Assembly: GCA_963669295.1 (NCBI GenBank)
Contig: OY769938.1
Location: forward strand, 2,286,394-2,350,393
Length of the DNA: 64,000 bases
Source of the DNA: Flavobacteriales bacterium
GTDB lineage: Bacteria; Bacteroidota; Bacteroidia; Flavobacteriales_D; CALLUQ01
Direction: 5' to 3'
The notes beneath the pieces are model-generated. The model did not search any database, was not told the origin of the DNA, and worked only from the letters and a program-made list of their open reading frames with translations. Made by a program: the position numbers and the translations under genes. Below, piece by piece: positions 28,564 to 50,983 of the stretch; position 1 is the first letter of the stretch; each line of letters starts with the position of its first letter.

Positions 28564-28582
28564 TATAAATATAGTATTCAGC

Positions 28583-33316: not shown

Positions 33317-34986
33317 TTTAATATTTTTTGAATGTACCCATCCCCATACTGTTTTTGAAACTTGTATATGAATAAATCTTGTTCTTTACTTTTTAGATAA
33401 TTTACTATGAATTGATGCCCTACTTTTATGTTGTGAGTTAAGTACAATTTGTACTTGGCATATGTAATCGCTTGAGACGCAGTAACTCGATTTGGTGCTA
33501 AGGTCTTAAAGTATTTAAAACTGTCCATGAGACATGAAATCGTATTAGACACAACTTCATTTTTAGATATTTCTGTCTTTTCACCATTATAAATATCATC
33601 ATACATATGTACCATGAAACGGTTTAAAAAATCATTTGGTGACACTACTCTGGACCAATTGATGTCATTCCAATAACAGATATGACTGAATAATTTCACC
33701 CCTTTATTAGAAAGCTTCAAATTCAATCTTAAATCAATTTCAATTAACTCTAAATCATACAGCCAGTTAAGTCGAGGCATAAGAACGTGTTCTAGATATA
33801 CCTCTGGATTCTTCCAGTTTTGAATTCTATCTATGATTCTCTTCAATTCTTTATATTCTGCACTGTTCTTCTCAAACCAAAATAAATCGCTTAATTGTTT
33901 TAGTCTTTTTAATAGTAATTGCTGAAATGATTTTAGAAGTATTTGAAAGCTAGATTTCCTATTGAGTTTTAAATGCTCCAGGATAATAGAAGTATATAAG
34001 AAATCTTCTCTTAAGATTGTTTCAAGAAAAAACAGCTTGTCCAGTTTTGCTAAAGCAAAAGCATTTTCCGACTTAACTCCTAACTCTTTATTTAATGCAC
34101 CAAATACCTTAAAAAGTTTCCCAGAAGAATAAACATTGTTTAAAAGATTCAGAAACCCAAGGTCTTTGGCTACCTCAATATATGGCGCAGCAGAAGTACC
34201 ATTCTTTGTTACCTTAATTAGTCCTTTGTCGTTCTTATACTGACCTAGTTGAGTTCTATATTCCTCAACAAATCTTTCAAACTTTTTATTAATAAAATTA
34301 GAGGGTACTTTTTCCTGTTCTTGTAGAAACTTGAGAAGGAGTTTGAAGTATCCAAGTCTTCGAACTTTTGTGTTTGTGTTGAGAATGGACAATCTTCGAT
34401 TATCAGGAATTTTCTCGTAATTTTTGTAGAATACCCAATAAAACTCCGGAGGAGTATAACTATCATTAGCGAACCTTAATTTATCAATAACTTCATTGTA
34501 GAAATTTGAATTTGAAATGTAAGAATCAGCTATATGTATCTCGAAAATATAGTTTGGTTCAGTATCACAAAACGCTGCGGCATCAAAATCTTCGTTATAT
34601 CCTTCATTTTGAGATACAAAATATTCTTTGACCGAATCTTGATCTATTTCTTGTATAATTTGAATTGCTTCATACATTTTATTACATATAGAAAATGGTT
34701 CCGAATAATCAATTATATCATTTCTATAGCCTAAGTATTCGCTAGAGCCTATATATGAAGCAGACGGTTCAAGTCTAGAAAACTCTTCAAGTTCTTTTTC
34801 TGAAAGACTTCTATAAAAGAGGTCTTCTTCTATTTGTTCTGAAGTCCCCGAAGGAAGATCAAATACTATTTCATACTCGGTAAAATCAAATAGTAACCTA
34901 TCATTCCGTAGAAGTGAAGTATCATTAGAAAACTGATTCAATATTTTATAAACCTCAATCATTTCTATACAAAACATGTAATACAA
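33313..34986 (-). CDS. hypothetical protein (about 550 aa, no recognisable motif)
   Basis: Long uninterrupted ORF. Candidate starts are TTG 34986, ATG 34977 or ATG 34962, all within or 2 nt from the SspD-like stop at 34965. Confidence 0.6.
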   Translation of the reverse strand: MYYMFCIEMIEVYKILNQFSNDTSLLRNDRLLFDFTEYEIVFDLPSGTSEQIEEDLFYRSLSEKELEEFSRLEPSASYIGSSEYLGYRNDIIDYSEPFSICNKMYEAIQIIQEIDQDSVKEYFVSQNEGYNEDFDAAAFCDTEPNYIFEIHIADSYISNSNFYNEVIDKLRFANDSYTPPEFYWVFYKNYEKIPDNRRLSILNTNTKVRRLGYFKLLLKFLQEQEKVPSNFINKKFERFVEEYRTQLGQYKNDKGLIKVTKNGTSAAPYIEVAKDLGFLNLLNNVYSSGKLFKVFGALNKELGVKSENAFALAKLDKLFFLETILREDFLYTSIILEHLKLNRKSSFQILLKSFQQLLLKRLKQLSDLFWFEKNSAEYKELKRIIDRIQNWKNPEVYLEHVLMPRLNWLYDLELIEIDLRLNLKLSNKGVKLFSHICYWNDINWSRVVSPNDFLNRFMVHMYDDIYNGEKTEISKNEVVSNTISCLMDSFKYFKTLAPNRVTASQAITYAKYKLYLTHNIKVGHQFIVNYLKSKEQDLFIYKFQKQYGDGYIQKILK

Positions 34987-36101
34987 CCTTCTTCTGTATC
35001 ATCTAAAATATCCAAAAGGAATTTTGAGCCTTTCGACTTTTCACGTCCTTTTCTATTCAAGTGCTCACGTTTAATAGATTCAATACGACTAGCCTCTTTT
35101 AACTCTTCAAGTGATTCATATTGGTTCCAAGTAAATGTCTCGTCAATATTCTCATAGTGCATCGCCTGTTCATACAAATCAGGGTGTTGTTCATACAACC
35201 ACACCCATTCAATTTTTTGCTGAAAAAAACAGAAGAAACAACCTGATCTGCTTCTTGCATACTCTCCTTTTTGCCCATCAACTTCATACTCTATTTTATT
35301 GTAGTATGCAGGAACTCCTACTCCACTTTCTTCAAGAATTCGAAAAATATCATCTCGCACTAGAATGTCTTCATTTTCAAGTAATGGAAAACTGTCTTCT
35401 ATAGACAAAGCATAATTGGTAGTCTTCAGAAAATCATAAATCACTCTATTCATTCCACTTATGGAAATATCAAGACAAGTATCGATTTTCTTATGTAGAT
35501 TCTTCTGTGCAACAATTCTTTCATTGAAATTAGTTGATACTTCAATGTCGAGCGCCTTTTTGAACTTATCAAGACTTTCTATTCCTTGTATGGTTTGAAA
35601 TAAATCTAATGCTTTTGATTGATTATCAGAATGAAAAAACTTCGTCCAAACATCCTCACTCCAAATGTTTCTTCGAAAAGGAAAAATTGATTGTATGTTC
35701 TCCTTTTTAGAAACATATCCTTCCCTACTTTCATCACCTCTAATACCCACATATGACACCGTAGGAGCTGTTCCAACATATTTTTCAAATGGCTGTAACT
35801 TCATCATGTTTGTACACCATCTAGCTTGAGGAGAAGGAAGGTAGCCTTTGAATATTTTATAGAAATAATCAAATGGGTTTTCCGAGCTTTTTTCAGCTTC
35901 TTCAGCAATAAGACGCTTTATCTTTTTCCCGAGATAAGACTCCAAATTGTCAATCAATTGATAAGTTTCATCAAGCTCTTTTCCAGTATCACAACAATAG
36001 TAGTCGAACTCTATTTGTGGATATTTATCTCGCAAATAAATTGCCAATGCTGCACTATCCTTTCCTCCTGATATTCCTAATACATGTCGGGCTTTACTCA
36101 T
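34965..36101 (-). CDS. PAPS reductase/PP-loop ATP pyrophosphatase family protein (SspD/DndC-like)
   Basis: PP-loop GISGGKDSAA, ARWCTNMMKLQP, C-terminal SRSGCFFCFFQ cysteine motif. 8-nt overlap with the upstream ATPase gene. Confidence 0.75.
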   Translation of the reverse strand: MSKARHVLGISGGKDSAALAIYLRDKYPQIEFDYYCCDTGKELDETYQLIDNLESYLGKKIKRLIAEEAEKSSENPFDYFYKIFKGYLPSPQARWCTNMMKLQPFEKYVGTAPTVSYVGIRGDESREGYVSKKENIQSIFPFRRNIWSEDVWTKFFHSDNQSKALDLFQTIQGIESLDKFKKALDIEVSTNFNERIVAQKNLHKKIDTCLDISISGMNRVIYDFLKTTNYALSIEDSFPLLENEDILVRDDIFRILEESGVGVPAYYNKIEYEVDGQKGEYARSRSGCFFCFFQQKIEWVWLYEQHPDLYEQAMHYENIDETFTWNQYESLEELKEASRIESIKREHLNRKGREKSKGSKFLLDILDDTEEGCITCFV

Positions 36102-39100
36102 TTTCTAATTCTCTTTTTAACAACTTGGCAAGTGCCATAATTTTCACACTCTTGTCTTTAGTTAACTCTTTGTCAAGTGCAGCAATTGCTTTATCAAGTT
36201 CTTTCTTTTTTGATTTATTCATTTTAACAACGACTCCCTTCATTCCAGAATCTCTTGTTGTAATGTCGAGCTTAAACGCTTCGTCATCATCATTTGTCAC
36301 CTCATCAATTTCAAGAAGGTTATCCAATTCTTTGAACATGTGTAATAGTTGGTCTTTGAGTACCTCTTCTTCTTGATCTTGAATATCAACCAATCGTTTT
36401 TTAAGAATTGCATGAGCGATTGATTCAATCCAACTGTTTCTATCATTTATAGGTGAATTCAACCTTAATAAGAAAGTTTTTTGATACTGCACCAATTTGT
36501 GTTCTTTAATTCCTTTGTACCTTTCTTGTAGAACAGATTTGTACTTTGAAAATCCTAGACTCTCATCAAGTATCTCGTCTACTATAAATTTTTCTATACG
36601 ATTCAATAATTCTGGGTACGCTCCTCTTATTTCAGTTATAGTTTCCTGAAACCTAATGATGTACTGCTCATAAGAGTCTTGTGATGTTGAAACGTCAATA
36701 CTTCTGAATTTAAGAGCCTCAGGAAAATCTTCAAAAAACACTTTTTCTGGATCTTCAGATTTAGCAATTGCAGTTCTTAGGTTTATTGCTTCACTAGAGA
36801 TTCTCTTTGTAATCTTCGAATATTGTGGGAGATTCTTATAGAGAGATATTATAGGTCCGATACATTCGATAAAAGACTTTACAGTCATTTTATCTTGCGA
36901 TTCAAGGTTTAATAATTCCCGATATTTATTAAACAATTTTATTCTAGCATCAGAAAGTTCAAAGGACTTGATTTCATACTCCTTTGGTGATCGAGATATT
37001 AAATGTAGTCTTGTCGCATCAATTTTTGGAATGAAGCCTTCATCCCCATATAACGCATAATCGCCCCGTTTAATAAAAAGAAACAAAGGCACCCAAAAGT
37101 CGACCAACCCTTTCTTTAATTTATAAGGCTTAGTTTCTAGTACCTTATATAACTCTGTGAGACTCTTTCTTTCCTCCCTACATTCCGATAAAAACCTTTC
37201 AGAAGCGTCCCATATTTCCCAAATAGGTGATTGTTGAGTTGGTGCACCTAACTCATATTTCCCTTTTATCTTATTATGGAGTCCAGTTTCCTTTAACAGA
37301 GAAATGTATATAGTTTTTTCTGCTGGAAATTTAGACTCAGGGAAATCTAAATCCTGTTTACTCCAATTATCCGAAACGGCTGAAAACAAATTCTTTCTTG
37401 CCGTGTGAATCGCAGTCGAAATTTTGTGCTTATTGAATAATTCATTTCTCAGTTTTGGAGTACCTGAATACACTTCTTCACATATTAATGATAGTTGTTG
37501 GTTTAATTTTCGAGAGGAATCGATTTGAAGAATTTTACCTCTCCAAACCCAAGATACTTTGTCCGCAAATAAAGCATCCTTGACGTAGTGATTCAGTAAA
37601 GATTTATGACTTTCTATTATGTTTTTAAGCTCTTTTCTAGCAACTAAATCATCATCATCTATATTTTGAAGTACTCTACTTGACTTTTCAATTTCAAACA
37701 AGGAATTTTTAATGTCACCAGCATTTTTGAAAAGACAGTAAATAATCGCTTCATCATGATTATTCGAAAATTCTTTTAACTTCTTTTCTGAAAGATCTTC
37801 ATTAAATACTAGGTTAATAAATCCATCAATCTCATCAACAGGGATATCTTGAGTTGGGTTTCGTGTTATCTTATATTCAAATAGTCTTGGTGTTCCAGTC
37901 TTATAGGAAAATGCTTTCGCCGTCAATATTGAGAATTCAAACGAATCTCTAAGTTTTGCAACAATATCAATATCATTCTCAACTTGGTTCTCAGCTTTTA
38001 ATAATGCTCCTTCTATGTCCAAATCAGTTCCTTCGAATAGCTTGTAAGAATCACTGAATTTATTGAAGCGGACTATTTGCAGCCTTGATAATTCGGATAT
38101 TACGCCTTTAGTATCACTCGATTGAGAGTTTCTTGTTATCTCCAGATATTCTTCGAGTAGACCATTGTCAATTATTGCTCCCTTATTAGCGAAAAGAGAT
38201 AGTAGTCCTACTGATTTAACAATAGAAAGGGCAAGTGATTGATTTTCCTCTATTCTGGCCTCAACCCTTTCAATTGAGGATCTAATACTTGCCCACTGAA
38301 TATAGTCTGGGTTATTGCGAGAAGACAGAAATGGATAGAAGTCCGCCCATAAATAGTCATAGACTTTGTCAATGCTGAAATAACTTTCAGTTTTACTATT
38401 CTCTCCAAATTTAGATAAAAATGAGAAGAGGGAACGTTCATTTTGACCATACCTCTGAAGAGATGCGGTGAGTATGAATGCAGATATTGGATCCAAGGGG
38501 TATAATCCATTAGAAATTCCTTCAAAGAATGTCTCACTAACCTTGAATAGCTTGTTGTTCTCAACTAATTTACCAATAGCATGACTACCATCCATTATCT
38601 GTACACCTAAATCCTCTGCTTGAAGTTTTTCAGATGCCAAGTACAATAACTGTTCTATTGGTTCGTTAAACGGCAACTCTTTAAATCGACCCTTTATTTT
38701 TCTCCATTCATTTCTCTCAATCTCACTTAAGTTAGAACCGTATGTATCGAAAGCTTGATGCAGGGTAGTAATAAAAAGTATATTTCGATTTGGGGAATTA
38801 ACAAACTCTGCCAATTGTTGAATAAAATAAAGCTCCCTTTCTGGATTATTCTTGACGGCATACTCAAGGAATTTCCCCATTTCATCAATCTGAATCACCA
38901 ACATTCCATTTTCCTCCCCTACTTCTTCATATTGTTGGTATATGGCATCAAAAAGTTCTTGATTACCTGAATGGGAACTTGAAACATTTAACACCTCGTG
39001 AAAATGCCCAATCATTGATTCATATACACCAACGATATTTATGAACTTTACATTCTCAACCTTATCGGGCAATGTCAAATCAAAGAGCTTTCTCTTATTA

Positions 39101-39300
39101 AGAATTGACTGCTCTATTGCCCATAGAAAAGAAGACTTACCTGTACCGTAAGAACCTATCAAATTGAATGAGTGAATCCCTTTCTTAAACTCATTAAAAA
39201 TGGTATAAATTGATTTCTGAGCATTGGGTGTTACAATATATTCTAACTGAGAATCTTCATCTCTTATAATGTTAACCGAAGGAGTATATCTATTTGCCAT
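36094..39300 (-). CDS. giant P-loop ATPase (SspC-like / BrxC-style)
   Basis: 1068 aa. Walker A GSYGTGKS (39133-39156), Walker B MLVIQIDEMGKF. 11-nt overlap with the upstream DUF4007-like gene. Confidence 0.6.
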   Translation of the reverse strand: MANRYTPSVNIIRDEDSQLEYIVTPNAQKSIYTIFNEFKKGIHSFNLIGSYGTGKSSFLWAIEQSILNKRKLFDLTLPDKVENVKFINIVGVYESMIGHFHEVLNVSSSHSGNQELFDAIYQQYEEVGEENGMLVIQIDEMGKFLEYAVKNNPERELYFIQQLAEFVNSPNRNILFITTLHQAFDTYGSNLSEIERNEWRKIKGRFKELPFNEPIEQLLYLASEKLQAEDLGVQIMDGSHAIGKLVENNKLFKVSETFFEGISNGLYPLDPISAFILTASLQRYGQNERSLFSFLSKFGENSKTESYFSIDKVYDYLWADFYPFLSSRNNPDYIQWASIRSSIERVEARIEENQSLALSIVKSVGLLSLFANKGAIIDNGLLEEYLEITRNSQSSDTKGVISELSRLQIVRFNKFSDSYKLFEGTDLDIEGALLKAENQVENDIDIVAKLRDSFEFSILTAKAFSYKTGTPRLFEYKITRNPTQDIPVDEIDGFINLVFNEDLSEKKLKEFSNNHDEAIIYCLFKNAGDIKNSLFEIEKSSRVLQNIDDDDLVARKELKNIIESHKSLLNHYVKDALFADKVSWVWRGKILQIDSSRKLNQQLSLICEEVYSGTPKLRNELFNKHKISTAIHTARKNLFSAVSDNWSKQDLDFPESKFPAEKTIYISLLKETGLHNKIKGKYELGAPTQQSPIWEIWDASERFLSECREERKSLTELYKVLETKPYKLKKGLVDFWVPLFLFIKRGDYALYGDEGFIPKIDATRLHLISRSPKEYEIKSFELSDARIKLFNKYRELLNLESQDKMTVKSFIECIGPIISLYKNLPQYSKITKRISSEAINLRTAIAKSEDPEKVFFEDFPEALKFRSIDVSTSQDSYEQYIIRFQETITEIRGAYPELLNRIEKFIVDEILDESLGFSKYKSVLQERYKGIKEHKLVQYQKTFLLRLNSPINDRNSWIESIAHAILKKRLVDIQDQEEEVLKDQLLHMFKELDNLLEIDEVTNDDDEAFKLDITTRDSGMKGVVVKMNKSKKKELDKAIAALDKELTKDKSVKIMALAKLLKRELENE

Positions 39301-40162
39301 AATACTTTTCTAAAACGTTAAACTTATTCGGTTTCCCATCCTTAAATTGAAGTTCTTTCACACCTGCATCATTTTTATAGACTATACCCTCAAACTCTTT
39401 TTCTATTTCTTGTAGAATCGATTCAAGGTTATCTTTATCAAAACAAAATACATTACCTGTACTTTCATGTGATTCAAACAAAGAACTAAAACTTATCGAA
39501 TCACCATAATCTTCATTATCAAGGATGGAATAAAGAACGATTTCCTTAGGTATCGATAACTGATTTCTATTCTCAATTCTATAAATGCTATTCTTAAGCT
39601 CATCTTTTCTAGCTAGTTCATGTAATAATCCAAGTTCTGTAAGCAACCCCGAATAACTTTCCTCAATATCTTTAGATGGTTTAGAAAAATACGTCCTAAC
39701 AAAAACAGAAAAATCTTTTTCTAACGTGTTTTCGTTTGCATTACCATCTTTTTCTAATGCTAAGGACTTAAAATGAAGCTTTGTGAATTCAGGTTTTAGC
39801 TTTCTCAGTTCTCCAAAAATGAGGTGATAAATTGATGCTCTCGATTTTGACTTTACGAGCGAGTAATGAAGTAACCATAAAGTTCCTTCGTCTTCCATAT
39901 ATGGATCATATCCATTATCCTGAAATATACTTGTTGCTAACTCACTGACTTGATCATAATCATCAAATAACCCAAATGCTCTCAGCCAATATCGAATTGA
40001 CCCAACCATATTTCTTCCAACGCCTAGCTTCATAACCGCCGAATCATTGAAACTAGCTTCTGATTCATTCGCATAATCAAAGCCTTTTTTTAACCAAAAA
40101 CTTCGACAGTGAAATGTCTCATGCCCAGAAAAATTGTAATTAACCTCGTTTCTCATCAACAT
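39290..40162 (-). CDS. DUF4007-like protein (SspB-like)
   Basis: 290 aa. The N-terminal FSGHETFHCRSFWLKKGFDY is, as I recall it, the DUF4007 signature. Its genomic partnership with PAPS reductase and a large ATPase fits that family. Confidence 0.55.
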   Translation of the reverse strand: MLMRNEVNYNFSGHETFHCRSFWLKKGFDYANESEASFNDSAVMKLGVGRNMVGSIRYWLRAFGLFDDYDQVSELATSIFQDNGYDPYMEDEGTLWLLHYSLVKSKSRASIYHLIFGELRKLKPEFTKLHFKSLALEKDGNANENTLEKDFSVFVRTYFSKPSKDIEESYSGLLTELGLLHELARKDELKNSIYRIENRNQLSIPKEIVLYSILDNEDYGDSISFSSLFESHESTGNVFCFDKDNLESILQEIEKEFEGIVYKNDAGVKELQFKDGKPNKFNVLEKYYGK

Positions 40163-40358
40163 TCATTTTAATACTAGAAACTATTAATTCTCTAACATCT
40201 ACATCAAGATGTTTAGCGATTTCATAGAGCAATTCTATCTTAGGCTGACACTTATTAGTACAATAGTTTGTCACCATCACAGTGCTCTTTCCAATCTGCT
40301 GCGCCAACCATTTTTGAGAACGCCCTTGTTCCTTTAATACTTCCTTAATTCTATTCAT
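40140..40358 (-). CDS. XRE-family helix-turn-helix transcriptional regulator
   Basis: QKWLAQQIGKSTVMVTNYCTNKCQPKIELLYEIAKHL is HTH_3-like. ATG 40358 preferred over GTG 40364. Overlaps the next gene by 23 nt. Confidence 0.8.
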   Translation of the reverse strand: MNRIKEVLKEQGRSQKWLAQQIGKSTVMVTNYCTNKCQPKIELLYEIAKHLDVDVRELIVSSIKMNVDEKRG

Positions 40359-40372
40359 AGTCACCTACTTGT

Positions 40373-40475: not shown

Positions 40476-40778
40476 TCACTTCTTTCCAAAGGCAGCACCT
40501 ATGGCAATATGAACGGCACGGCTTGAAAGTATCTTACCTAAAACTCCATTCGGTTTAAGGCCAAGGGACTTAATAAGTATTCTTCCTATTAGTCTTCCAA
40601 AGGCCAGACCTGTTAAACCTCCTAGAATGCGTTTAAATGCGGATTCATTGGTGTTTGATAAGTAATCGTCTATAGACAGACCAGATTCTTTTAATTCATT
40701 CCAAAATGCTGTTTCAATATCCTTTTCCTTCTTTGATTGAATGGAAGAAATGAATTCTTCGTATGATTTTATATCCAT
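40476..40778 (-). CDS. hypothetical small protein with Gly-rich amphipathic/TM C-terminus
   Basis: 100 aa. C-terminus GGLTGLAFGRLIGRILIKSLGL...AVHIAIGAAFGKK. Confidence 0.45.
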   Translation of the reverse strand: MDIKSYEEFISSIQSKKEKDIETAFWNELKESGLSIDDYLSNTNESAFKRILGGLTGLAFGRLIGRILIKSLGLKPNGVLGKILSSRAVHIAIGAAFGKK

Positions 40779-40808
40779 GATAGGGCTTTTAGTTATATAT
40801 CAAAAAAA

Positions 40809-40827
40809 GTTTCAACTGATTTGAAAC
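40809..40827. promoter_or_regulatory. inverted repeat in a divergent promoter region
   Basis: GTTTCAA-CTGAT-TTGAAAC, about 30 nt upstream of ATG 40856. Confidence 0.25.
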
Positions 40828-40855
40828 AATTTGATTGGTCGTGTCTATACAAGAC

Positions 40856-42091
40856 ATGAAAAAAGAAATAAAAGCACATTTTATACTTCCTGAAAGTGGA
40901 TTTAGAAGAGTGATGAGTAGTCCTATGTCTAAGAAATCAAAAAGTAGAGACAAACTTCTTTTTGTTGTGAGTTCATTGTACTGTTATCAATACAAAAACT
41001 TCAACCCAGATTACAAAGGCTTCATTCCGTTACACTCTAGTATTTTAAAAAAGTTTTTGGGCAATCATTCCTACACATCTTTTATAAAAGAACTCATGAG
41101 ATTGGGGATGATCGAAAGGTCAGGATTGTATGTGCCATCACAAATTAGTCGTGGATATAGACTTAAAGAACCTTTTCGGTCTGATAAACCAATTTTGATA
41201 AAAGCTAAGGATAAGGTAATCACAAACAAACTTATCGCTACTAGGATTAGTGAAGAACAGCTTTTAACGGATGTAGATCGGTTTTTATTCAAAAACTTAA
41301 GGAGAATGTCATTCCGAGTTGAAGACGGCTTAGAACAGATTAAAACAGATTTAGAGATGAATGAAGCTTATACGCAATATCGCTTCAATTCTGATTTCGT
41401 TTCAATTGTAGAATTAGCAGATGAGAACTTTAGGTTCACACGAGATCAATTCGGAAATCGTGCTCATCATAATTTAACCAATATGCGCTCCTCATTAAAG
41501 AAGTTTTTGCGTGTTGATGGAATCGATGAATTAATAGGGCTGGATATTGCCAATTCTCAACCGTTTCTATTCAATGTAATTCTACGAAAAATGTACCCAT
41601 CCGAAATACCTAAAGATGTTGAACATTACATTAACCTTACGAGCAATGGAAACTTCTATTCGTATTTAAAAGAACACTTAAATAACAACAAAAGCATTAA
41701 GCAAATTAAGAAGGAGTTTTTTGGAAAGGTATTTTTCAGTCGAAACTTCATTTATGGTCGAAAAAATACTAATGAATATACACTACTGATGGAGCAACAT
41801 TTCCCTACAGTTTATAAAGCTATTTGGCATTGCAAAAGAAGAAATCACAAGGAGCTACCAAAGGCATTACAACAAGTAGAAAGTCATATAATAATTGATA
41901 CCGTAATTGAATCCGTTTCTACTAAGAACCCAAATGCATTTTGCATCACAATTCATGATGAGATTTTGACCACAATGGAGCACTTAAAATTGGTTGAAAA
42001 TAAGCTATTGGATGGGTTTGATCAATTTAGTCTCAAACCCTTGATACGACTGAGAAAATATAGTAATATATTTGCTAAAAAACTTGCATAA
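40856..42091 (+). CDS. compact protein with family-A DNA polymerase / T7-type polymerase-like palm motifs (putative replication protein)
   Basis: Residue numbers follow the 418-aa tracked ORF from 40835. Motif A-like GLDIANSQPFLF (D237). Motif B-like KEFFGKVFFSRNFIYG (Y307 G308) followed by HFPTVYKAIW. ALQQVESHIIID (compare PolA QGTAADIIK). Motif C-like CITIHDEILT (H374 D375 E376). Confidence 0.35.
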   Translation: MKKEIKAHFILPESGFRRVMSSPMSKKSKSRDKLLFVVSSLYCYQYKNFNPDYKGFIPLHSSILKKFLGNHSYTSFIKELMRLGMIERSGLYVPSQISRGYRLKEPFRSDKPILIKAKDKVITNKLIATRISEEQLLTDVDRFLFKNLRRMSFRVEDGLEQIKTDLEMNEAYTQYRFNSDFVSIVELADENFRFTRDQFGNRAHHNLTNMRSSLKKFLRVDGIDELIGLDIANSQPFLFNVILRKMYPSEIPKDVEHYINLTSNGNFYSYLKEHLNNNKSIKQIKKEFFGKVFFSRNFIYGRKNTNEYTLLMEQHFPTVYKAIWHCKRRNHKELPKALQQVESHIIIDTVIESVSTKNPNAFCITIHDEILTTMEHLKLVENKLLDGFDQFSLKPLIRLRKYSNIFAKKLA

Positions 42092-42302
42092 TTCAATTGT
42101 TTTTCCTATATTTATTATGTTATTGAAAGGAAGAAGTTTTATGCTTATAAAGTAAATTAAAACGACATAAAAAAGAACTCTTAAAAGGGTGTATATATCT
42201 GTTTGGATATTTGCACCCTTTTTTATTGGTGCGCACCAAAGAGCAATAACACAAAACAATAATTTATTAATCAGCTTAACGACCAGTTTCGAACTGTATC
42301 GT

Positions 42303-42512
42303 ATGGCACAATTATGTCCAAAAATGAAGACAGAAAACACACAATTTATTGACAGTTCAAACTGTCCTGAAAAGCTCTTTGAATGCGCTATAAATGAGAA
42401 CCTACTAATGAATGCCATTAATGAGCAAATTTCAGAACATGAGATAGAATTATGGTTAAAAACTATTGACCACAAAATGTTTAATAACGAATGGGATCTC
42501 ATAGAATACTAA
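42303..42512 (+). CDS. small hypothetical protein
   Basis: 69 aa from ATG 42303. Followed by a perfect palindrome. Competes with a low-complexity antisense ORF. Confidence 0.3.
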   Translation: MAQLCPKMKTENTQFIDSSNCPEKLFECAINENLLMNAINEQISEHEIELWLKTIDHKMFNNEWDLIEY

Positions 42513-42529
42513 TAATTAAATATAAACCC

Positions 42530-42551
42530 GCTCTCACCTTAAGGTGAGAGC
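42530..42551. other. perfect 22-bp palindrome / hairpin
   Basis: GCTCTCACC-TTAA-GGTGAGAGC. No T run follows. Lies 16 nt upstream of ATG 42567. Confidence 0.5.
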
Positions 42552-42566
42552 ACAAAACAAATAAAT

Positions 42567-42896
42567 ATGATTACAGAAGAAAAAGAATTAGAAATCACAG
42601 TAGAAGAATTTATAAAGCTAGTCCCAGAGTGTTGTCCTCATTGTGTTGAGGAAATGTTTCCAGACTTAGTAATGTTACCCTTGGTATATGAAGATGCCAA
42701 ATTAGAAGACATTGTAAAAGAATTTAAAAAGGAATATTCAACCATAAGGAAAGTTGTAGAATATATGGGCGCAACTGTCTACTATGACAAAGATGGAAAC
42801 GAAGAAGATGTTGACCTTGGAGGACTTACAGAAGTAAGATGGGAATGCTCATCGTGTCAAGCAGTATTTGAAGATTATAAACCAGAAAACTATTAG
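42567..42896 (+). CDS. small acidic protein with putative CxxC...CxxC zinc ribbon
   Basis: 109 aa with CCPHC near the N-terminus and CSSC near the C-terminus. Confidence 0.5.
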   Translation: MITEEKELEITVEEFIKLVPECCPHCVEEMFPDLVMLPLVYEDAKLEDIVKEFKKEYSTIRKVVEYMGATVYYDKDGNEEDVDLGGLTEVRWECSSCQAVFEDYKPENY

Positions 42897-42898
42897 AA

Positions 42899-43294
42899 AT
42901 GAAAAATACAAAATATGAATTCGAGTATGAATCTGATATAATTCTAGAGGAAGAATTTACATTGATATTAGACTCATCAGAAATAGGTTATGAGAATCCG
43001 ACAATAGACCAAATTTCAGATTGGATTAAGGATAACTATAAAGCCGTGTTTAACCACGATAATGAGTACATAGTAGATTTCGATTATGTAGATGAAGTAT
43101 ACTGCAATCTTAAAAACTTTAAAGTGAGTGGAAAACAAATCGAAGGAGAGGTACTCGACAGAGATTATCGTTTAGGAGATAATGTTTGGGGGTTGCAAGA
43201 CTATGAAAGTCTTTGCCATAAAAACATATTTGGGTCAGGTAAACAATGTACTGACTTAGCAGATTATATTATAAATTCTTTATACCAATTGTAA
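42899..43294 (+). CDS. small acidic hypothetical protein
   Basis: 131 aa. Starts 2 nt after the previous stop. Confidence 0.5.
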   Translation: MKNTKYEFEYESDIILEEEFTLILDSSEIGYENPTIDQISDWIKDNYKAVFNHDNEYIVDFDYVDEVYCNLKNFKVSGKQIEGEVLDRDYRLGDNVWGLQDYESLCHKNIFGSGKQCTDLADYIINSLYQL

Positions 43295-43554
43295 TGAAAA
43301 TAGAAATTAAGATAACACCTAAACTTAGATACGAAAAACAGTTTAAATCAAAACTCGAATTCAAATATTTTGAAAAGGCTCAAAAAACGGCTGAAGTCAA
43401 AGGAATTAGCTTTTTGGACGAAGTAAAATACTTAACTAAGAATTATCCTTTCTTTATGAAGCATAATTGTATGGAAGCTGATAGATCTTCATTAGAAGAA
43501 AAAAGTGAATTAGTTGAAATTTATGAACTCGGTGATATAGAAATACTTAAATGA
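43294..43554 (+). CDS. small hypothetical protein
   Basis: 86 aa. 1-nt start/stop overlap with the previous ORF. Confidence 0.5.
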   Translation: MKIEIKITPKLRYEKQFKSKLEFKYFEKAQKTAEVKGISFLDEVKYLTKNYPFFMKHNCMEADRSSLEEKSELVEIYELGDIEILK

Positions 43555-43580
43555 ATCGAAACATACTAGGTTCTGAACTT

Positions 43581-43621
43581 AAAAAGCCAACTGACTGAAA
43601 AACTGTCGGTTGGCTTTTTTT
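43581..43621. terminator. bidirectional rho-independent terminator between convergent genes
   Basis: Stem AGCCAACTGAC / GTCGGTTGGCT (one G-T pair), flanked by A5 on the left and T7 on the right. Confidence 0.65.
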
Positions 43622-43650
43622 ATTTCTTTAGTGCACAAAAAATGAACTAA

Positions 43651-44349
43651 TTATGCATAAGAGTCAGCTAAATATTCACAGTACTTGTAAAAGGAAAAAT
43701 CTTCCGATCCATCTTTTCTGAATTCCTCTAGAGTTACCCCATACTGATCAGAAATCTTAACCCCACTCCATCTTATCATATTGTCAAGAGTTGTATCTAA
43801 TAATATCTCTGGAGCTTCAAGTTCTACCCCATAGAAATGATCAACATAAGAACTGTCTACATCCAAAAATTTATGCATCCACATAAAAAATTCAGTTGAA
43901 TTATATCCATAAGTTATTCCATCTAATGAAGGTTCTGGTAGAGGAACGTGGCTTGAATTTGCACTAAAAAACACATATAATACATTATAAGACAAATATT
44001 CCTCAAAGCTGTTGAAATGAGATTTGCAATTATTGTACTCAATTAAACATTGATCAAATTTTAAATATTCTTCACCCACTTCAGGTATGATAAAGACTTG
44101 AAGCTTTGAAATTTCGTTTAACAAATAGTTAGGATAGGTGAATTTCTGATTTAAGTCAATGATTTGATCTGACAGTTCATACATTTCAGCATTTTCTATT
44201 ATTCTTTCCAATTCTGACAATGTAACAAAAGAATCCAGCAATACTTTTGGATTCTTTTCAGCAATTATACTATCAATTTGTTTTTGAACGTATTCAACAA
44301 AAGTGTTTTTGCGAAGTTCAGAAGTTAAGTTTTCTATGTTCATAATCAT
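43651..44349 (-). CDS. hypothetical protein
   Basis: 232 aa. ATGA overlap with the upstream ORF at 44346-44349. Confidence 0.5.
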   Translation of the reverse strand: MIMNIENLTSELRKNTFVEYVQKQIDSIIAEKNPKVLLDSFVTLSELERIIENAEMYELSDQIIDLNQKFTYPNYLLNEISKLQVFIIPEVGEEYLKFDQCLIEYNNCKSHFNSFEEYLSYNVLYVFFSANSSHVPLPEPSLDGITYGYNSTEFFMWMHKFLDVDSSYVDHFYGVELEAPEILLDTTLDNMIRWSGVKISDQYGVTLEEFRKDGSEDFSFYKYCEYLADSYA

Positions 44350-44702
44350 GTACTTGCTTCTACCTCAAAACCTCCTGTTTTGGTCATTTGAGGATTTGTT
44401 TTTCCTACTTGATAAAGATACTCGGCACCATCATTACGAGAATCGTAGAAATCTGTCATACCGTTTTCGCAGTAATACAATTCGTAAAGAGCTTCTTTAT
44501 TCTCTTCTGAAAGGACATCTTCATTTTCATCTATGAAGCTATCTACATCATAAATTTCATTAGCAAGAAACTCAACTAAGCTTTGAGCATCTTCCCCTTT
44601 ATATTTGGGAGTGCATTTCTTTAGGTTATCAATATCAAATTCTTGTACTTCACTCGCTGAACTCATTTGATACACTTCAACCTTTCTTATTTGTACTTTC
44701 AT
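44346..44702 (-). CDS. small highly acidic hypothetical protein
   Basis: 118 aa, rich in D/E (DVDSFIDENEDVLSEENKEALYELYY). Confidence 0.5.
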   Translation of the reverse strand: MKVQIRKVEVYQMSSASEVQEFDIDNLKKCTPKYKGEDAQSLVEFLANEIYDVDSFIDENEDVLSEENKEALYELYYCENGMTDFYDSRNDGAEYLYQVGKTNPQMTKTGGFEVEAST

Positions 44703-44711
44703 ATTAGTTTT

Positions 44712-46226
44712 CTACTTTTTTGGTTTTACTTTAATGTCTTTAGTAGAGGTCAACTTGCCATAAGTGTAAACTTCCTTCTTATATTTTATACCATCTTCAT
44801 TATAGTGAATCCAAACCCCATTCATTTCATAAACTTTGTTTTTGCCAAAAGGATCATTTGGCGTAGGACCTGCCATTGGGTTTATCGCATAATTACTAGT
44901 CATTTTTAAATTGCCATTTTCATGATAGTCCTTCCATTGACCTGATTTCTGACCATTAGTTACCGATCCTTCTGACATTTTGTTACCATTTGGATAATAA
45001 TAAATACAAGGCCCATCAAGAGTTTCAGGATCAAGTGAAATCATCTTACCTTCAAATTGTAATTGTCCGTTAGAATAATAGTCTCTAACTGATTCATTTG
45101 AAATGCTTCCAGTTTGAGTAAATGTTATTACTCGATAGAATGAAGCTTCTCTTTTTGAATCTACCTCTTCCCAGTTTTCGTTATAATAGATCGTCCATTT
45201 TCCAACTCTGTACCCATTACTATATTTTAGATCACCATTCTTACTGCCATCTTCATTGTACGAAACCCAAATACCATCTCTATCTCCACGCTGATTCAAG
45301 CCACCTTCCAGAGACTTATTACCATTTTCATAATAAGAAATCATTGTACCTGAATACTGGCGACTACTACCTCCAGCTCTCCGATTTGATAATACCTCTG
45401 AATACTGCATTCTCGGGTTCCCATTTGGATAAAAAAGTGTTGTTTGAACATTCTGCTTCCCATTTGATATAGCTTCATACACTATTTTCTTTTCCATGTT
45501 GCCAAGACTGTCGTAATATACTTGCTCGCCTTCCATGATTTCTCCATACATATCACCTTTGGCGAAATTTTCTAAACTTTTTACCTTCCCATCAGCGTAC
45601 CAGATTGTCTTCTTGCCAAACCATTTTCCATTTTCCATTAAACCTTCTGCTAGCTTTGCCCCATCAGGGTACCATTCATTTATATCTCCATGATAAACTC
45701 CCTCTAGCATATTAAATTCTATCTTCTTTTGACCATTATCATACCAAGCTGTATTCTTACCTGTTATAGGATGTGCGGCCTCAATTTTAACTCCTTCAAG
45801 GTTGTACTTTTCATAATATGTCTTCTCGCCATTCTCATATTTCTCCATCAAAATCATTATTCTTTTACCTTCTTTACAACCATACTCATACCAAGTTCCT
45901 GATGGATTTCCTTTAGAATAGTTCTTTACTGAATAGGGAAGCTTTGCGCACTCACTGTCATCCTTCATTCCAATCCAAAACTCTTGTTTTCCATTAGCAA
46001 AACTGTTGCTAAATGTTGCTTTGGTTATCATCTTTCCATTTGAATCGAACTTCTTATAAGAACCATTCTTTTGTCCCTTTGAATTAACGAAATAGATTTC
46101 TTTGATTTTTGATTGTACTAATGGGTCGTAATATGTTCTTACTTCCTTTTGAGCCAATGCAAATGAAGCAGATAAAACGAAAAGAGAAACAGCGATAAAT
46201 GATTTCATAATTAATGAGTTTTTCAA
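44712..46226 (-). CDS. MORN-repeat-variant (YwqK family) secreted protein
   Basis: Signal peptide. More than 10 repeats of the W(Y/K)xxYxxNGxxxxEGxxxNGxxxG type (for example EWYPDGAKLAEGLMENGKWFGKKTIWYADGKVKS). Confidence 0.7.
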   Translation of the reverse strand: MKNSLIMKSFIAVSLFVLSASFALAQKEVRTYYDPLVQSKIKEIYFVNSKGQKNGSYKKFDSNGKMITKATFSNSFANGKQEFWIGMKDDSECAKLPYSVKNYSKGNPSGTWYEYGCKEGKRIMILMEKYENGEKTYYEKYNLEGVKIEAAHPITGKNTAWYDNGQKKIEFNMLEGVYHGDINEWYPDGAKLAEGLMENGKWFGKKTIWYADGKVKSLENFAKGDMYGEIMEGEQVYYDSLGNMEKKIVYEAISNGKQNVQTTLFYPNGNPRMQYSEVLSNRRAGGSSRQYSGTMISYYENGNKSLEGGLNQRGDRDGIWVSYNEDGSKNGDLKYSNGYRVGKWTIYYNENWEEVDSKREASFYRVITFTQTGSISNESVRDYYSNGQLQFEGKMISLDPETLDGPCIYYYPNGNKMSEGSVTNGQKSGQWKDYHENGNLKMTSNYAINPMAGPTPNDPFGKNKVYEMNGVWIHYNEDGIKYKKEVYTYGKLTSTKDIKVKPKK

Positions 46227-46325
46227 TTTGGATAAAAGTAAATTCGATTAATTCAGAATAACTGTACATTAATGTACACTATTGGTTATTTTTGATTTAT
46301 AACCTTGAATGGTTGTATTTAAATA

Positions 46326-47537
46326 GTGCCAAGAACGCCAAACAATATTGACCCAGAAATACTGTCTTCGTTGAAAGAAGAAGTATTGATTGTTTACAAT
46401 AAACCATTGAAACGATCCGTGGACTGTGATAAATTGGCTGATGTCGTAACTCGGAAAACAAACCAATTTATCAATGGCATTTCGTTCAAAAGACTATATG
46501 GATTTACCAAATACCCCTTTAATCCGTCCTATCAGACATTAGATATTTTAGCACAATACGTTGGGAAAAAAGATTGGTATGACTTCCAACAATCCTTCGG
46601 TGACCCATCGGAGATTTCCAATTCAGAATTGGAGCTAATGTTGTCGGTTTATAACTTTGACTTTATAAACCAAATAGACAATTATGAAGGAGGCATTCAA
46701 TCAGTATCTCGTTTAATTGCTTTAAGACTTAGAGATAACCCAGAAGCATTTAAAAGAGTAGCTGAAAATCTAGCTTCAAACCCAAATTCACAGGTGTTCT
46801 TTATTGAACATTTTCCTGACTATGATAACCTCATCAATTATTATCACATTGCCTTTGAAGAATACCTTAAACATAAGCATACAAGTGAAGCTCAATTATT
46901 TGGAAACTGCGTTCTCTTTTTGAAAGGATTTTGGGAAGACAACGAATCAGAGTGTATTCAACGAATTAATAACATCAATGAAGTTGGTGTAAATGATAGT
47001 ATTCATCCATACGTTATTGGTCGATATTACGGCTGTAACATTCTCTACAAACACTTTTTTGGAAACAAAGAAGTTGAGTTTTTAATCGAAAAAACATTTG
47101 AGGTTAGTAATCGTATGCCAGTTGACGGCAAACATTTCATTGATTTCCCAGCCTTTCAATATATCGTTTCAGAAGCTATGTTGCATTGTGAAAAACATGA
47201 AGCGTGTATTAAAATGGTAGATGAAGCCTTTGAAAGATATCCTTTGAAAATGGAATTCGTTAGAAAAGGATATTACCGCCAATTACAACTATTTAAATCA
47301 ATAGCATTATGGAAGCTTGGCAGAGAAAGGGAGTCAATTGATTTGTTTGATAAAATCAACCCTTCCAATTTCTACTTCTTTTCCAGAAAATACTATACTG
47401 CCATCTACTTATTGCAAAAGCTGAGAATAGAGTTTGACGAGACAACATCTAATCATACCTCTAGAATCATTAAAGAGATGAGTAATTACTTCCTAGCAAA
47501 AGAGTACCAAAAAGTAACTGGCAACAAGGTTTTCTGA
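46326..47537 (+). CDS. hypothetical protein (helical, TPR-like C-terminal part possible)
   Basis: 403-aa ORF with a GTG start. No catalytic motif recognised. Confidence 0.45.
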   Translation: MPRTPNNIDPEILSSLKEEVLIVYNKPLKRSVDCDKLADVVTRKTNQFINGISFKRLYGFTKYPFNPSYQTLDILAQYVGKKDWYDFQQSFGDPSEISNSELELMLSVYNFDFINQIDNYEGGIQSVSRLIALRLRDNPEAFKRVAENLASNPNSQVFFIEHFPDYDNLINYYHIAFEEYLKHKHTSEAQLFGNCVLFLKGFWEDNESECIQRINNINEVGVNDSIHPYVIGRYYGCNILYKHFFGNKEVEFLIEKTFEVSNRMPVDGKHFIDFPAFQYIVSEAMLHCEKHEACIKMVDEAFERYPLKMEFVRKGYYRQLQLFKSIALWKLGRERESIDLFDKINPSNFYFFSRKYYTAIYLLQKLRIEFDETTSNHTSRIIKEMSNYFLAKEYQKVTGNKVF

Positions 47538-47588
47538 GAATCTCTTTGGCGTGTCTAACTCCATTGATAGTTTAGCTCAAAAACAATT

Positions 47589-47840
47589 ATGGAAAAGAAC
47601 AAATTACAAACGCTATTAAGCATAGCTCAAAAAAATCAATTCTGCATTAGAGATGAAAAGAACAATTATCTACCAGTTGCTCCTAGTTCAAAAGGAGAAG
47701 TGGTTGATGTTGTAAGTCTAATCGCCAAAGAAATTTTTGGCTCTTGGCCACTAAACGAAGAACAAGAAAAGCAATTTAAAATTCTAACTAACCTAAAGTA
47801 TCGTCCTTCTACCAGAAAGCCACAGGAGAAAACGGCATAA
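47589..47840 (+). CDS. small hypothetical protein
   Basis: 83-aa ORF followed by a hairpin. Confidence 0.4.
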   Translation: MEKNKLQTLLSIAQKNQFCIRDEKNNYLPVAPSSKGEVVDVVSLIAKEIFGSWPLNEEQEKQFKILTNLKYRPSTRKPQEKTA

Positions 47841-47857
47841 CCACCAAAATCTCCAGA

Positions 47858-47882
47858 AGCCATGATTACCTCATGGCTTTGT
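47858..47882 (+). terminator. hairpin, possible terminator
   Basis: Perfect 9-bp stem AAGCCATGA / TCATGGCTT with a 5-nt loop. Weak T tract. Confidence 0.4.
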
Positions 47883-47958
47883 GGGGTTGCTATATAAACA
47901 TGTATATGATTTTAAGATGTCACCGTTGCTGTCGAAATATAGTCAGCCCAAAATTGAG

Positions 47959-48177
47959 CTATTTACCTCTTTTGGTAGGCTTTTTTCTTAGATTAGGATA
48001 AGGGACTATTTTCTTTTTATCCTCACAGACTTCTTCAATGATTTTATGATTCAGTTTAACCAGTAGTTCGTTCTGTTCCTTTAGCAGTCTATTCTGCTCA
48101 CCAAGACTATCTAGATTAGCCAATTGTATCAAAATCACCTCTTCCATTTCTTCCTTGGTATATCTTAACTTACCCAT
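47959..48177 (-). CDS. small coiled-coil hypothetical protein
   Basis: 72 aa. 1-nt overlap with the upstream HTH gene. Confidence 0.45.
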   Translation of the reverse strand: MGKLRYTKEEMEEVILIQLANLDSLGEQNRLLKEQNELLVKLNHKIIEEVCEDKKKIVPYPNLRKKPTKRGK

Positions 48178-48629
48178 TATGCGGCTTGAACTTTAAACTT
48201 TCTTTTTGATGAGGTGATAAAATCATTTAAATCGACTTCTGATATACGTGTTTTCTTTTCTGACAATCTACTAGCCCTTAACTTACCTTCATTGATGTAG
48301 TTGTTCACGGTCATTCTTGATACGCCAAGAATATCAGCTACCTCAACAGGTGTAAATAACTTATTTGGATCAGGTTCATTTCCATTTGGATTCAAAGAGG
48401 GTTGAACATCCTCTTCCAAGTTGAGCTTATCTAAAAACTGTAGTTTGTATTCGGCCAATCCATTTAAAAAGGACCTTTGAAACTGTTTGACTGCTTTGTG
48501 CATATTTATATAGTCTCTCTTCTCATTCAATGAGCTAGCCAGAATAGAAAATGCCATATCTTCTACCTCAGCAGAGCATACGTGACCCTCAGCAATTCGT
48601 GTAAAGTATTTCTTAAATAGTTCTTCCAT
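48177..48629 (-). CDS. helix-turn-helix (excisionase/MerR-like HTH_17) DNA-binding protein
   Basis: C-terminal FTPVEVADILGVSRMTVNNYINEGKLRASRL. Lies directly downstream of the integrase. Confidence 0.65.
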   Translation of the reverse strand: MEELFKKYFTRIAEGHVCSAEVEDMAFSILASSLNEKRDYINMHKAVKQFQRSFLNGLAEYKLQFLDKLNLEEDVQPSLNPNGNEPDPNKLFTPVEVADILGVSRMTVNNYINEGKLRASRLSEKKTRISEVDLNDFITSSKRKFKVQAA

Positions 48630-48634
48630 AACTT

Positions 48635-49861: not shown

Positions 49862-50019
49862 TTATTCTTAAAATGGTTCCCATCTTATAGCACGTAAATT
49901 CAAATTGTTTCAAGATGGAATCAACTTTATTTTGAGCCAAAGTATTACAAGGGGTTCAGGGGCCAAAGAGGTAGGTAGGATTTGCAACCTAAATCGAGAA
50001 AAAGACGTTATTAACGTAC

Positions 50020-50805: not shown

Positions 50806-50962
50806 ATAGGTTGTATGGCGCCGATGAACAAACATTGAACAAAATTCTATGTAAATTCATCAAGCACTTTGAAAAACCGAAAATTGTAATCAACTGAATT
50901 TAAGTGAGCTACTAGAATTCAGAACTGATTATGTAAAATATAAGCCCATTTGGTAAAGATTA

Positions 50963-50983
50963 TTCGAAACCTTCAGGGCCCAC
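50963..50983 (+). repeat. degenerate copy of the tRNA-Met 3' end (attR-like scar)
   Basis: TTCGAAACCTTCAGGGCCCAC versus tRNA TTCGAGCCCTGGTGGGCCCAC (28284-28305 region). 16/21 identical, including an exact GGGCCCAC. Confidence 0.55.

Follow-up and report, generated by a model that had tools for sequence, protein, structure and literature searches.

We describe an exonuclease-less polymerase of the family-A type, encoded by a 411-amino-acid (aa) gene in a 64,000-nucleotide (nt) stretch of a Flavobacteriales bacterium genome (contig OY769938.1, positions 2,286,394–2,350,393; this whole stretch is referred to as the window). The gene belongs to the backbone of a mobile island with exchangeable defence cargo, and the architecture and genetic context of its product fit the TV-Pol type of minimal polymerases. 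On balance, we lean towards an active TV-Pol-type enzyme that would serve as the primase-polymerase of the excised island. An earlier reading of the DNA letters (the original prediction) had proposed a compact polymerase with a right-hand palm and fingers, related to family A and lacking an exonuclease domain; the fold search, the profile alignment and the invariant carboxylates described below all agree with that proposal.

A family-A fold in a family of hypothetical proteins

The open reading frame (ORF) extends on the forward strand from 40835 (TTG) or 40856 (ATG) to 42091. Because the closest homologues, P0002 and P0003, start at the MKKE encoded from the ATG, 40856 is the likely start; residues are numbered from it here, and the numbers used in the original prediction equal these plus 7. 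The protein has a predicted mass of 47 kDa. It has no significant match in Pfam, NCBIfam, PHROGs or PADLOC (in Pfam and NCBIfam, none at E ≤ 1), the curated Pfam DNA_pol_A model leaves it unmatched, and a sequence search of the Protein Data Bank (PDB) returned nothing significant, with a sole hint of motif C against phage G20c Pol I (E = 1.2). Homology to family A is visible only at the profile–profile and fold level.

The family itself is very large. An exhaustive HMMER search of 1.84 billion cluster representatives found 3,758 relatives at E ≤ 1e-3, of which 1,865 reach E ≤ 1e-10, so that the family comprises at least 3,758 clusters at 50% identity. All members with a source name are called ‘hypothetical protein’, bar one evident misannotation, and no Pfam domain is on record for any of them.

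An AlphaFold2 model of the protein, built from 39 homologues (predicted local distance difference test (pLDDT) 91; predicted template-modelling score (pTM) 0.86), gave 59 Foldseek matches in the PDB at E ≤ 1e-3, the best at E = 2e-6. Family-A DNA polymerases account for each of the 50 best matches listed, with template-modelling (TM) scores of about 0.40–0.43 normalised to the query, and no RNA polymerase is among these matches; the matches include apicoplast Pol (2e-6), T7 DNA polymerase, Aquifex Pol I, KlenTaq, Bst and Pol theta. This check by AlphaFold and Foldseek had been suggested in the original prediction, and it found a polymerase fold with family-A DNA polymerases as the top PDB matches. 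In BFVD, two structural matches are near full length (TM 0.81 and 0.78), one of them annotated ‘Putative DNA polymerase I [uncultured marine phage]’, and the BFVD list contains proteins annotated as DNA polymerase I among unnamed ones.

The 411 residues contain no exonuclease domain, and the longer homologues scanned carry only integrase or unknown extensions; in P0108 (886 aa) a tyrosine integrase is fused to the polymerase. P0073 (790 aa) has an N-terminal extension of 400 aa without a Pfam match. From the models, the protein would consist of an N-terminal DNA-binding-like domain (residues 1–150), a two-helix thumb (155–188) and the Arg202 β-hairpin, followed by an RNA recognition motif (RRM) palm with Asp230 and Asp368 and by helical fingers with Lys285, Phe289 and Phe293. 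The gene and its parts, all on the forward strand, are as follows.

40856–42091, forward: exonuclease-less family-A-type polymerase gene, 411 aa (ORF, AlphaFold2 model, Foldseek, hhalign; alternative TTG start at 40835)
40856–41305, forward: N-terminal domain, residues 1–150, mostly helical with a short β-hairpin (DSSP of the models; position equivalent to TV-PolN)
41318–41419, forward: thumb-like antiparallel helix pair, residues 155–188 (helices 155–168 and 174–188 in both models; position as in the TV-Pol description)
41435–41482, forward: β-hairpin and GNR202AHHN206LT208N209 (strands 194–196 and 203–205 in the model; R202 invariant in 126 sequences)
41534–41572, forward: motif A, L-D230-I-A-N-S-Q235-P-F (hhalign, conservation)
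41696–41737, forward: motif B (O-helix), K285-xxx-F289-xxx-F293 (hhalign, conservation)
41801–41887, forward: F316-P317 and L338-Q339..E342 motifs (matching Pol I ERYPGV and Q849)
41945–41962, forward: motif C, T-I-H367-D368-E369 (with D368, equivalent to Pol I D882, as the second catalytic Asp)

The N-terminal part modelled alone reached a pLDDT of 87, and Foldseek found no significant PDB match for it (best E = 0.17). The weak matches are almost wholly winged-helix DNA binders (PadR, ArsR, MarR and plasmid RepA_N). A winged-helix N terminus, as originally guessed, is therefore weakly suggested by a match list that is not significant, and on the predicted structure the domain is possibly a DNA binder of this kind.

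Conserved residues and their counterparts in Pol I

In an alignment of 126 diverse homologues, R202, D230, Q235, Y268, P317, E342, H367 and D368 are invariant (126 of 126), and R215, N233, S234, P236, G265, K285, F316, Q339 and I366 are at least 90% conserved. The invariance of the motif residues indicates that the motifs are under strong selection; on this conservation, the ORF and all five motifs first picked out in it are real and far from chance.

Single-sequence hhalign comparisons with E. coli Pol I, T7 DNA polymerase and T7 RNA polymerase were too weak (E = 0.02–0.46), and we therefore built small profiles from phage genomes. The PolA profile contains ten polymerase domains (E. coli Pol I, T7 gp5 and eight diverse phage PolAs), and the single-subunit RNA polymerase (ssRNAP) profile contains nine T7-type sequences. 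A 183-sequence alignment of the family matched the PolA profile over 170 columns with a probability of 87.5% (E = 3.6e-6), pairing residues 213–394 with Pol I 688–911, whereas reversed-sequence controls gave E = 0.16–0.46. D230 corresponds to D705, the catalytic Asp of motif A, and Q235 to E710 at the steric-gate position. In motif B (R-xxx-K-xxx-F-xxx-Y), K285, F289 and F293/F294 align with the O-helix residues K758, F762 and Y766, respectively; the Arg at −4, equivalent to R754, is the family consensus, and the window protein has Ile281 there, adjoined by Lys282. F316-P317 aligns with the Tyr-Pro of Pol I ERYPGV. Q339 corresponds to Q849, and H367-D368-E369 corresponds to H881-D882-E883 of motif C.

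Two details of the original prediction change with this alignment. It had named D237, D375 and E376 as candidates for the catalytic carboxylates, that is, D230, D368 and E369 in the present numbering; both Asp residues are invariant and fall on D705 and D882, but the Glu, aligned to E883, is replaced by Ser in most homologues (TIHDS). Motif B is present, but its register is K285/F289/F293, and the non-conserved ‘FIYG’ at 298–301 is no part of it. A further motif with an invariant Arg, GNR202AHHNLTN, lies on the predicted β-hairpin just ahead of the palm. Compared by eye, it may resemble TGR668LSS..PNLQN of Pol I; a single-sequence hhalign of the hairpin region gave E = 0.059 and aligned it to the neighbouring TGRVHTSY instead.

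Could the fold have lost its activity and been reused as a DNA-binding regulator or a replication initiator? Ile281 in place of the conserved Arg of RxxxK would fit such a catalytically dead protein, and there is a precedent among the PolA-SSB primases, in which SSB denotes a single-stranded DNA-binding protein and some ‘Pol’ proteins retain no more than an RRM core that is possibly inactive (Rice 2023; PMC10061031). However, thousands of clusters keep, with few or no exceptions, both Asp residues, the Lys of the O-helix, the Arg of the hairpin and Q339, and Lys282 sits next to position 281, so we find a dead fold scarcely credible.

The likeness to T7 RNA polymerase that had also been proposed holds for motif C only. 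The ssRNAP profile matched the family over just 35 columns around that motif (IHDS; E = 2.2e-4), and because the match is confined to these columns, the DNA-polymerase branch is the better comparison. The PolA and ssRNAP profiles barely detect each other (E = 0.044), and the new family detects both; it therefore fits a minimal core. An ssRNAP or RNA primase that transcribes the island or makes RNA primers in the manner of T7 would explain why motif C reads closer to RNA polymerases, with IHDS in most homologues as in T7 RNA polymerase, and would suit the Phe found in place of the Tyr766 hydroxyl. Such a role was left open by the authors of divPolA2 for a structurally similar phage protein (Yutin et al. 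2024). Against it stand the 35 matched columns compared with 170 for PolA, the DNA polymerases that fill the 50 best PDB fold matches listed, the presence of DNA-polymerase-type motifs (GR..NL.N, FP and LQ..E) and, in contrast to T7-type enzymes, the absence of a promoter-specificity loop and of an ssRNAP-like N-terminal domain. A tested relative, CcPol, prefers deoxynucleoside triphosphates (dNTPs) (PMC7581432). Judged from the residues themselves, Phe at the F762 position and Gln at the steric gate would fit the use of dNTPs better than that of ribonucleoside triphosphates (NTPs), and we regard an RNA polymerase as improbable.

The polymerase is a backbone gene of a defence island

The polymerase gene lies in a low-GC block that extends from about 28.4 to 50 kb of the window (30–35% GC versus about 42% elsewhere). 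A tRNA-Met gene (28231–28305) is located directly ahead of the block, and a tyrosine integrase gene marks its right end. P0003, a homologue with 59% identity, is encoded on the TARA Oceans contig L004, in which nine genes, from the 100-aa gene through the integrase, occur in the same order as in the window at 40–81% identity. This common backbone block occupies 40476–49861 of the window (9.4 kb). At the same position, the cargo consists of Ssp genes in the window and of BREX (bacteriophage exclusion) genes in L004. The polymerase gene thus forms part of the backbone of a mobile island whose defence cargo can be exchanged and, because the cargo differs between the related islands, it stands outside the Ssp system. 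The original view that the gene belongs to the island and not to its defence cargo is borne out by the same comparison. The other genes of the island are listed here, with cargo first.

31296–34986, reverse: three cargo genes beside Ssp (557, 372 and 305 aa; no PADLOC model bar a weak BrxD-like ATPase match)
34965–36101, reverse: SspD (PADLOC, 1e-91)
36094–39300, reverse: SspC (PADLOC, E = 0)
39290–40162, reverse: SspB (PADLOC, 1e-95)
40140–40364, reverse: XRE helix-turn-helix (HTH) gene, variable cargo, 0.5 kb from the polymerase gene
40476–40778, reverse: 100-aa backbone gene, divergent and possibly membrane-associated (63% identity with its positional counterpart in L004)
42567–42896: 109-aa backbone gene (homologue in L004)
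43651–44349: 232-aa backbone gene (homologue in L004)
44712–46226: MORN-repeat backbone protein (Pfam; L004 counterpart at 12635–14641, 41% identity)
46326–47537: 403-aa helical backbone protein (60% identical in L004; without a Pfam match)
47589–47840: 83-aa backbone gene (homologue in L004)
48177–48629: HTH_17 excisionase-like gene (Pfam; homologue in L004)
48635–49861: tyrosine integrase (Pfam; homologue in L004), right end of the low-GC block

The position of the gene 0.5 kb from the XRE–sspBCD operon, and the restriction–modification genes beside many homologues, would also suit a polymerase that is itself anti-phage cargo, either as a partner of Ssp phosphorothioation or as a stand-alone defence polymerase. 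PADLOC, however, has no match for it, and the polymerase stays in place while the cargo switches between Ssp, BREX and type I or IIG restriction–modification. Minimal elements of 7 kb carry a secreted protein and no defence gene, and the strongest linkage of the family is to integrase and HTH_17 genes. We consider a defence function very unlikely.

Other genes of the island drew our attention in their own right. In the window, the SspBCD phosphorothioation module is complete and accompanied by an XRE HTH gene, and the three genes that follow may be an undescribed Ssp restriction partner. Immediately past the tRNA-Met gene, at the left margin of the low-GC block, 28481–31290 encodes a 110-aa protein and an 825-aa protein; the latter has a sub-threshold match to GHKL ATPases (HATPase_c_3, E = 4e-4, 20.8 bits versus a cut-off of 25), and both genes may be further defence cargo. 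The BREX genes of L004 (503–9561), which stand opposite 28.4–40.4 kb of the window, encode a BrxC/PglY-like protein, a methylase and PglZ, which is split into ORFs of 360 and 128 aa, possibly by a frameshift. Within the backbone, the 100-aa gene has only a sub-threshold glycine-zipper hint in Pfam (E = 0.7), and the MORN-repeat protein is an odd companion for integrase and polymerase genes. The 403-aa protein was considered as a helicase or relaxase and rejected, since no P-loop is seen on reading its sequence and it looks helical and repeat-like; it may be a regulator.

Downstream of the polymerase gene, the 475-nt stretch at 42092–42566 contains a hairpin at 42183–42222, a possible 69-aa acidic ORF (42303–42512) and a perfect 11-nt palindrome (42530–42551). 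The hairpin, judged terminator-like by eye, was not called by a consensus terminator scan.

42183–42222, forward: terminator-like imperfect 17-nt inverted repeat and T run, 92 nt past the stop codon

Relatives in bacterial genomes and viruses

A scan of one genome per species identified 159 relatives, and the analysis retained the best 80 loci. Bacteroidota supply nearly all of them, and Ignavibacteriota and Chlorobiota some. Two outliers beyond Bacteroidota and Ignavibacteriota, in metagenome-assembled genomes of Janthinobacterium (L033) and Clostridium (L063), could reflect horizontal transfer or binning contamination.

Clustering of the neighbouring genes at 86 loci from Bacteroidota and Ignavibacteriota placed a tyrosine-integrase cluster within 10 kb of the polymerase in 70 loci. 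Integrase copies are mostly upstream of the polymerase (61 of 76) and on the same strand (59 of 76), at a median distance of about 1.1 kb. Small proteins assigned to HTH_17 by Pfam are encoded near the polymerase in 48 of the 86 loci, in most cases directly upstream of it and in the same orientation. Typically the integrase comes first, in some loci followed by a gene of 250–370 aa, and then come HTH_17, the polymerase and large cargo, often restriction–modification; many homologues adjoin restriction–modification genes, and the cargo elsewhere is of type I or IIG. Minimal elements of about 7 kb comprise an integrase gene, a single cargo gene for a secreted protein, two short genes, the polymerase gene and a gene of 80 aa. 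In a minor variant (7 loci), the polymerase lies beside an AAA_24 ATPase.

This arrangement raises the question of whether the polymerase acts at recombination, together with the integrase and the HTH_17 protein, as a gap-filling enzyme or an accessory to excision and integration. The tight order of integrase, HTH_17 and polymerase genes on one strand in most loci, the existence of an integrase–polymerase fusion and the failure to find a helicase or an origin nearby would all fit, and PrmN1, a primase homologue, is reportedly required for excision of the Bacteroides element NBU1. Tyrosine recombinases, however, require no DNA synthesis; in the window, 6.5 kb separate the polymerase from the integrase, and the two are encoded on opposite strands; and the family is carried by 71 viral contigs, almost none of which has an integrase. 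We therefore think an accessory role unlikely.

Those viral copies come from IMG/VR, in which many of the 71 contigs are 100–675 kb long, and four published huge-phage records add to them. The integrase-free viral contigs are a second habitat of the family and, because most of the 71 lack an integrase, the role of the polymerase is untied from integration as such. In 39 of the 71 contigs, the polymerase is flanked by conserved proteins of 442 and 179 aa without a Pfam or PHROG match. In these contigs (L112–L182), genes near the polymerase also encode a Dam methylase, an NFACT-R protein, a GT2 glycosyltransferase and an M28-like peptidase.

One copy is on a plasmid, the 35-kb Hymenobacter qilianensis plasmid NZ_CP060788 (L103), which encodes a 524-aa family member beside a ParA-like gene (407–4398). 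It also carries its own pair of ParA and Rep genes and a serine recombinase, and may be a cointegrate of two replicons. The idea of the polymerase as a sole plasmid replicon was set aside, as this lone plasmid copy sits on a plasmid with a Rep gene.

Comparison with known polymerases

The TV-Pol family was defined by Iyer, Abhiman and Aravind (2008, Biol Direct 3:39; PMC2579912) as minimal family-A relatives of 400–600 aa, which occur in Bacteroidetes and viruses and were proposed to be primase-polymerases. Their core consists of a two-helix thumb, an absolutely conserved Arg on a β-hairpin, an RRM palm with two Asp residues and RxxxK fingers, and nuclease domains are never fused or linked to them (PMC2579912). 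A subset has an N-terminal all-helical domain and is encoded beside λ-type integrases, resolvases or transposases, in restriction–modification hot spots; a link to a D5-like helicase was described for one subset only (PMC2579912).

Set against this published description, the window polymerase fits the TV-Pol type in both architecture and context. Its helices at 155–168 and 174–188, its hairpin at 194–205 with R202, D230 and D368, and the consensus R-xxx-K285 correspond to the TV-Pol core; it likewise has no nuclease domain, and its first 150 residues are mostly helical; and the family shares the occurrence in Bacteroidota, the frequent restriction–modification neighbours, the link to mobile elements (an integrase in 70 of 86 loci) and the presence in viruses (71 contigs). 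It differs from the description in that no D5-like helicase is fused or adjacent, and the integrase/HTH_17/polymerase module and the defence-cargo islands are absent from PMC2579912.

The presumed TV-Pol with which we compared sequences is MAP_030 of phage Ma-LMM01, a 506-aa ORF beside IS605-type transposases. Its profile contains three sequences, MAP_030 and its homologues from a Polaromonas and a Calothrix plasmid, both of which adjoin resolvase or recombinase genes. Our family HMM (hidden Markov model) found nothing in 100 kb of the 162-kb Ma-LMM01 genome, a search that covered all but the middle 62 kb. Of two other Ma-LMM01 proteins, MAP_134 is a DnaG-type primase and MAP_178 is the ordinary PolA of the phage. 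The Polaromonas plasmid pH8NP1 (L102; 1787–3292) encodes a 501-aa protein annotated ‘Clp protease N-terminal domain-containing’ that has the PolA-type motifs GRLYA..NLQN, YDYDIENCH, KQALLALIYGAS, LLQGVES and LLQHDG. A recombinase gene lies about 1.4 kb upstream of it. The protein is probably a TV-Pol with a wrong annotation. To our knowledge, no TV-Pol with an N-terminal domain has ever been biochemically tested.

CcPol of SCCmec is the only biochemically studied TV-Pol (PMC7581432; PMC10061031). The enzyme elongates primers with dNTPs; together with MP, its small partner, it also primes de novo, for which dNTPs alone are used (Bebel et al. 2020, eLife; PMC7581432). The window polymerase resembles the CcPol–MP pair as an exonuclease-less family-A enzyme encoded among the core genes of an island that is driven by a recombinase and carries variable cargo, in the aromatic residue at the F762 position and in its proposed task of starting the replication of an excised element. 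However, CcPol has the oligonucleotide/oligosaccharide-binding (OB)-fold partner MP and a downstream helicase, neither of which was found beside the window polymerase, and the recurrent small neighbour here is the HTH_17 protein, not an OB fold (Pfam). CcPol also keeps the Glu at the steric gate, in contrast to the invariant Gln of the window family, and it occurs in Bacillota hosts with serine recombinases.

The divPolA2 proteins of barbaviruses and related phages, of about 430 aa and with no recognisable thumb (Yutin et al. 2024), share with the window polymerase an active-looking palm, the lack of an exonuclease, an N-terminal globular domain of unknown relation and variable neighbourhoods. 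The Barba31A protein is among the fold matches (E = 1.3e-6), but its TM score is 0.32 compared with 0.78–0.81 for true family members in BFVD, and divPolA2 is found in phages only. Relative to Klenow-type Pol I and T7 DNA polymerase, motifs A, B and C and the Q849 motif occur in the same order; the window protein differs from both in lacking 3′–5′ and 5′–3′ exonucleases, in a thumb of two helices only, in fingers about 60 residues shorter, in Gln for Glu710 and Phe for Tyr766, and in its extra N-terminal domain.

The original prediction had put the protein at less than half the size of known members, but TV-Pols (PMC2579912), CcPol (PMC7581432) and divPolA2 are already in the range of 400–600 aa. 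As all three had been described before, its claims of exceptional smallness and unusual biology were overstated.

A proposed role in replication of the excised island

From the sequence, the models and the context, we infer catalytic activity, a dNTP substrate, priming and the excised island as the target. In the role that we lean towards, the integrase and the excisionase-like protein would circularise the island, the N-terminal domain would position the polymerase on island DNA, and the polymerase core would initiate DNA synthesis, probably with dNTPs, either de novo or at a nick or a short primer. The use of dNTPs is suggested by the Phe at the F762 position, the Gln at the steric gate and the precedent of CcPol. 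The polymerase would make at least the first stretch of DNA, after which host replication proteins would take over, and the excised island would be kept from loss.

The original prediction held replication after excision to be unusual for an integrative island, which overstates the case, because other integrative elements replicate after excision. Staphylococcal pathogenicity islands (SaPIs), phage-inducible chromosomal islands (PICIs) and several integrative and conjugative elements (ICEs) replicate once excised, and replication has been proposed for pipolins and SCCmec. The title of PMC7433901 reports replication of SGI1.

Several findings weigh against the primase-polymerase role. Ile281 replaces the Arg of RxxxK in the window protein and in its two closest relatives, and activity across the whole family is a prediction from its conserved residues. 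CcPol needs its partner MP to prime, and no such partner was found here. Next to the polymerase, neither the window backbone nor the recurrent neighbours yielded a helicase or SSB-like gene, the nearest to one being the AAA_24 gene of 7 loci. Around the polymerase gene, a search for iterons or an origin gave chance-level repeats only. No attachment (att) repeats of at least 13 nt connect 27900–28900 with 49700–51200, and the 3′ end of the tRNA-Met is unduplicated; with the island ends and att repeats unfound, excision of the island is itself something that we infer. Linkage to an integrase is seen in only 4 of the 71 viral contigs, and the Hymenobacter plasmid copy coexists with an ordinary Rep protein. 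The assignment to TV-Pol is affected as well, as the sequence link to the MAP_030 group is weak (local P = 0.0053, global P = 4e-4; reversed controls, 0.42–0.46) and MAP_030 is itself presumed to be the TV-Pol of 2008. The local match falls on the N-terminal domain, and the Arg, Asp, Lys, LQ..E and HD motifs are collinear; from these alignments the link is suggestive, not conclusive.

A more specific form of the primase-polymerase role draws on pipolins, which are integrative defence-gene platforms built around piPolB, a stand-alone primer-independent polymerase (PMC5695915; PMC11551731). The family might be the PolA counterpart of piPolB, that is, a primer-independent single protein that starts island replication with its own N-terminal domain replacing the SSB partner on which CcPol depends. 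The likeness is one of concept only, a stand-alone polymerase as the hallmark gene of integrative defence platforms; piPolB is a family-B enzyme with an unrelated sequence and another palm topology, an analogue and not a homologue. We put this forward as a tentative possibility.

Implications

The kind of protein that we describe is already known, as TV-Pols, CcPol and divPolA2 were described before, and the window polymerase adds to them. What changes is that a very large family of ‘hypothetical’ proteins, without a model in Pfam, NCBIfam, PHROG or PADLOC, can now be read as minimal family-A polymerases. The gene also marks a common type of Bacteroidota integrative island with interchangeable anti-phage cargo (Ssp, BREX or restriction–modification). 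With its putative built-in DNA-binding domain, a 47-kDa exonuclease-less polymerase may prove a useful reagent. If the protein primes alone, it would become only the second family-A primase with biochemical support, and the first to consist of a single chain, and it would offer a direct way to test the TV-Pol primase-polymerase proposal of 2008. If the family is indeed the PolA counterpart of piPolB, islands with an integrase, an excisionase-like protein and this polymerase would be self-replicating carriers of defence genes throughout the phylum Bacteroidota, or ‘PolA pipolins’.

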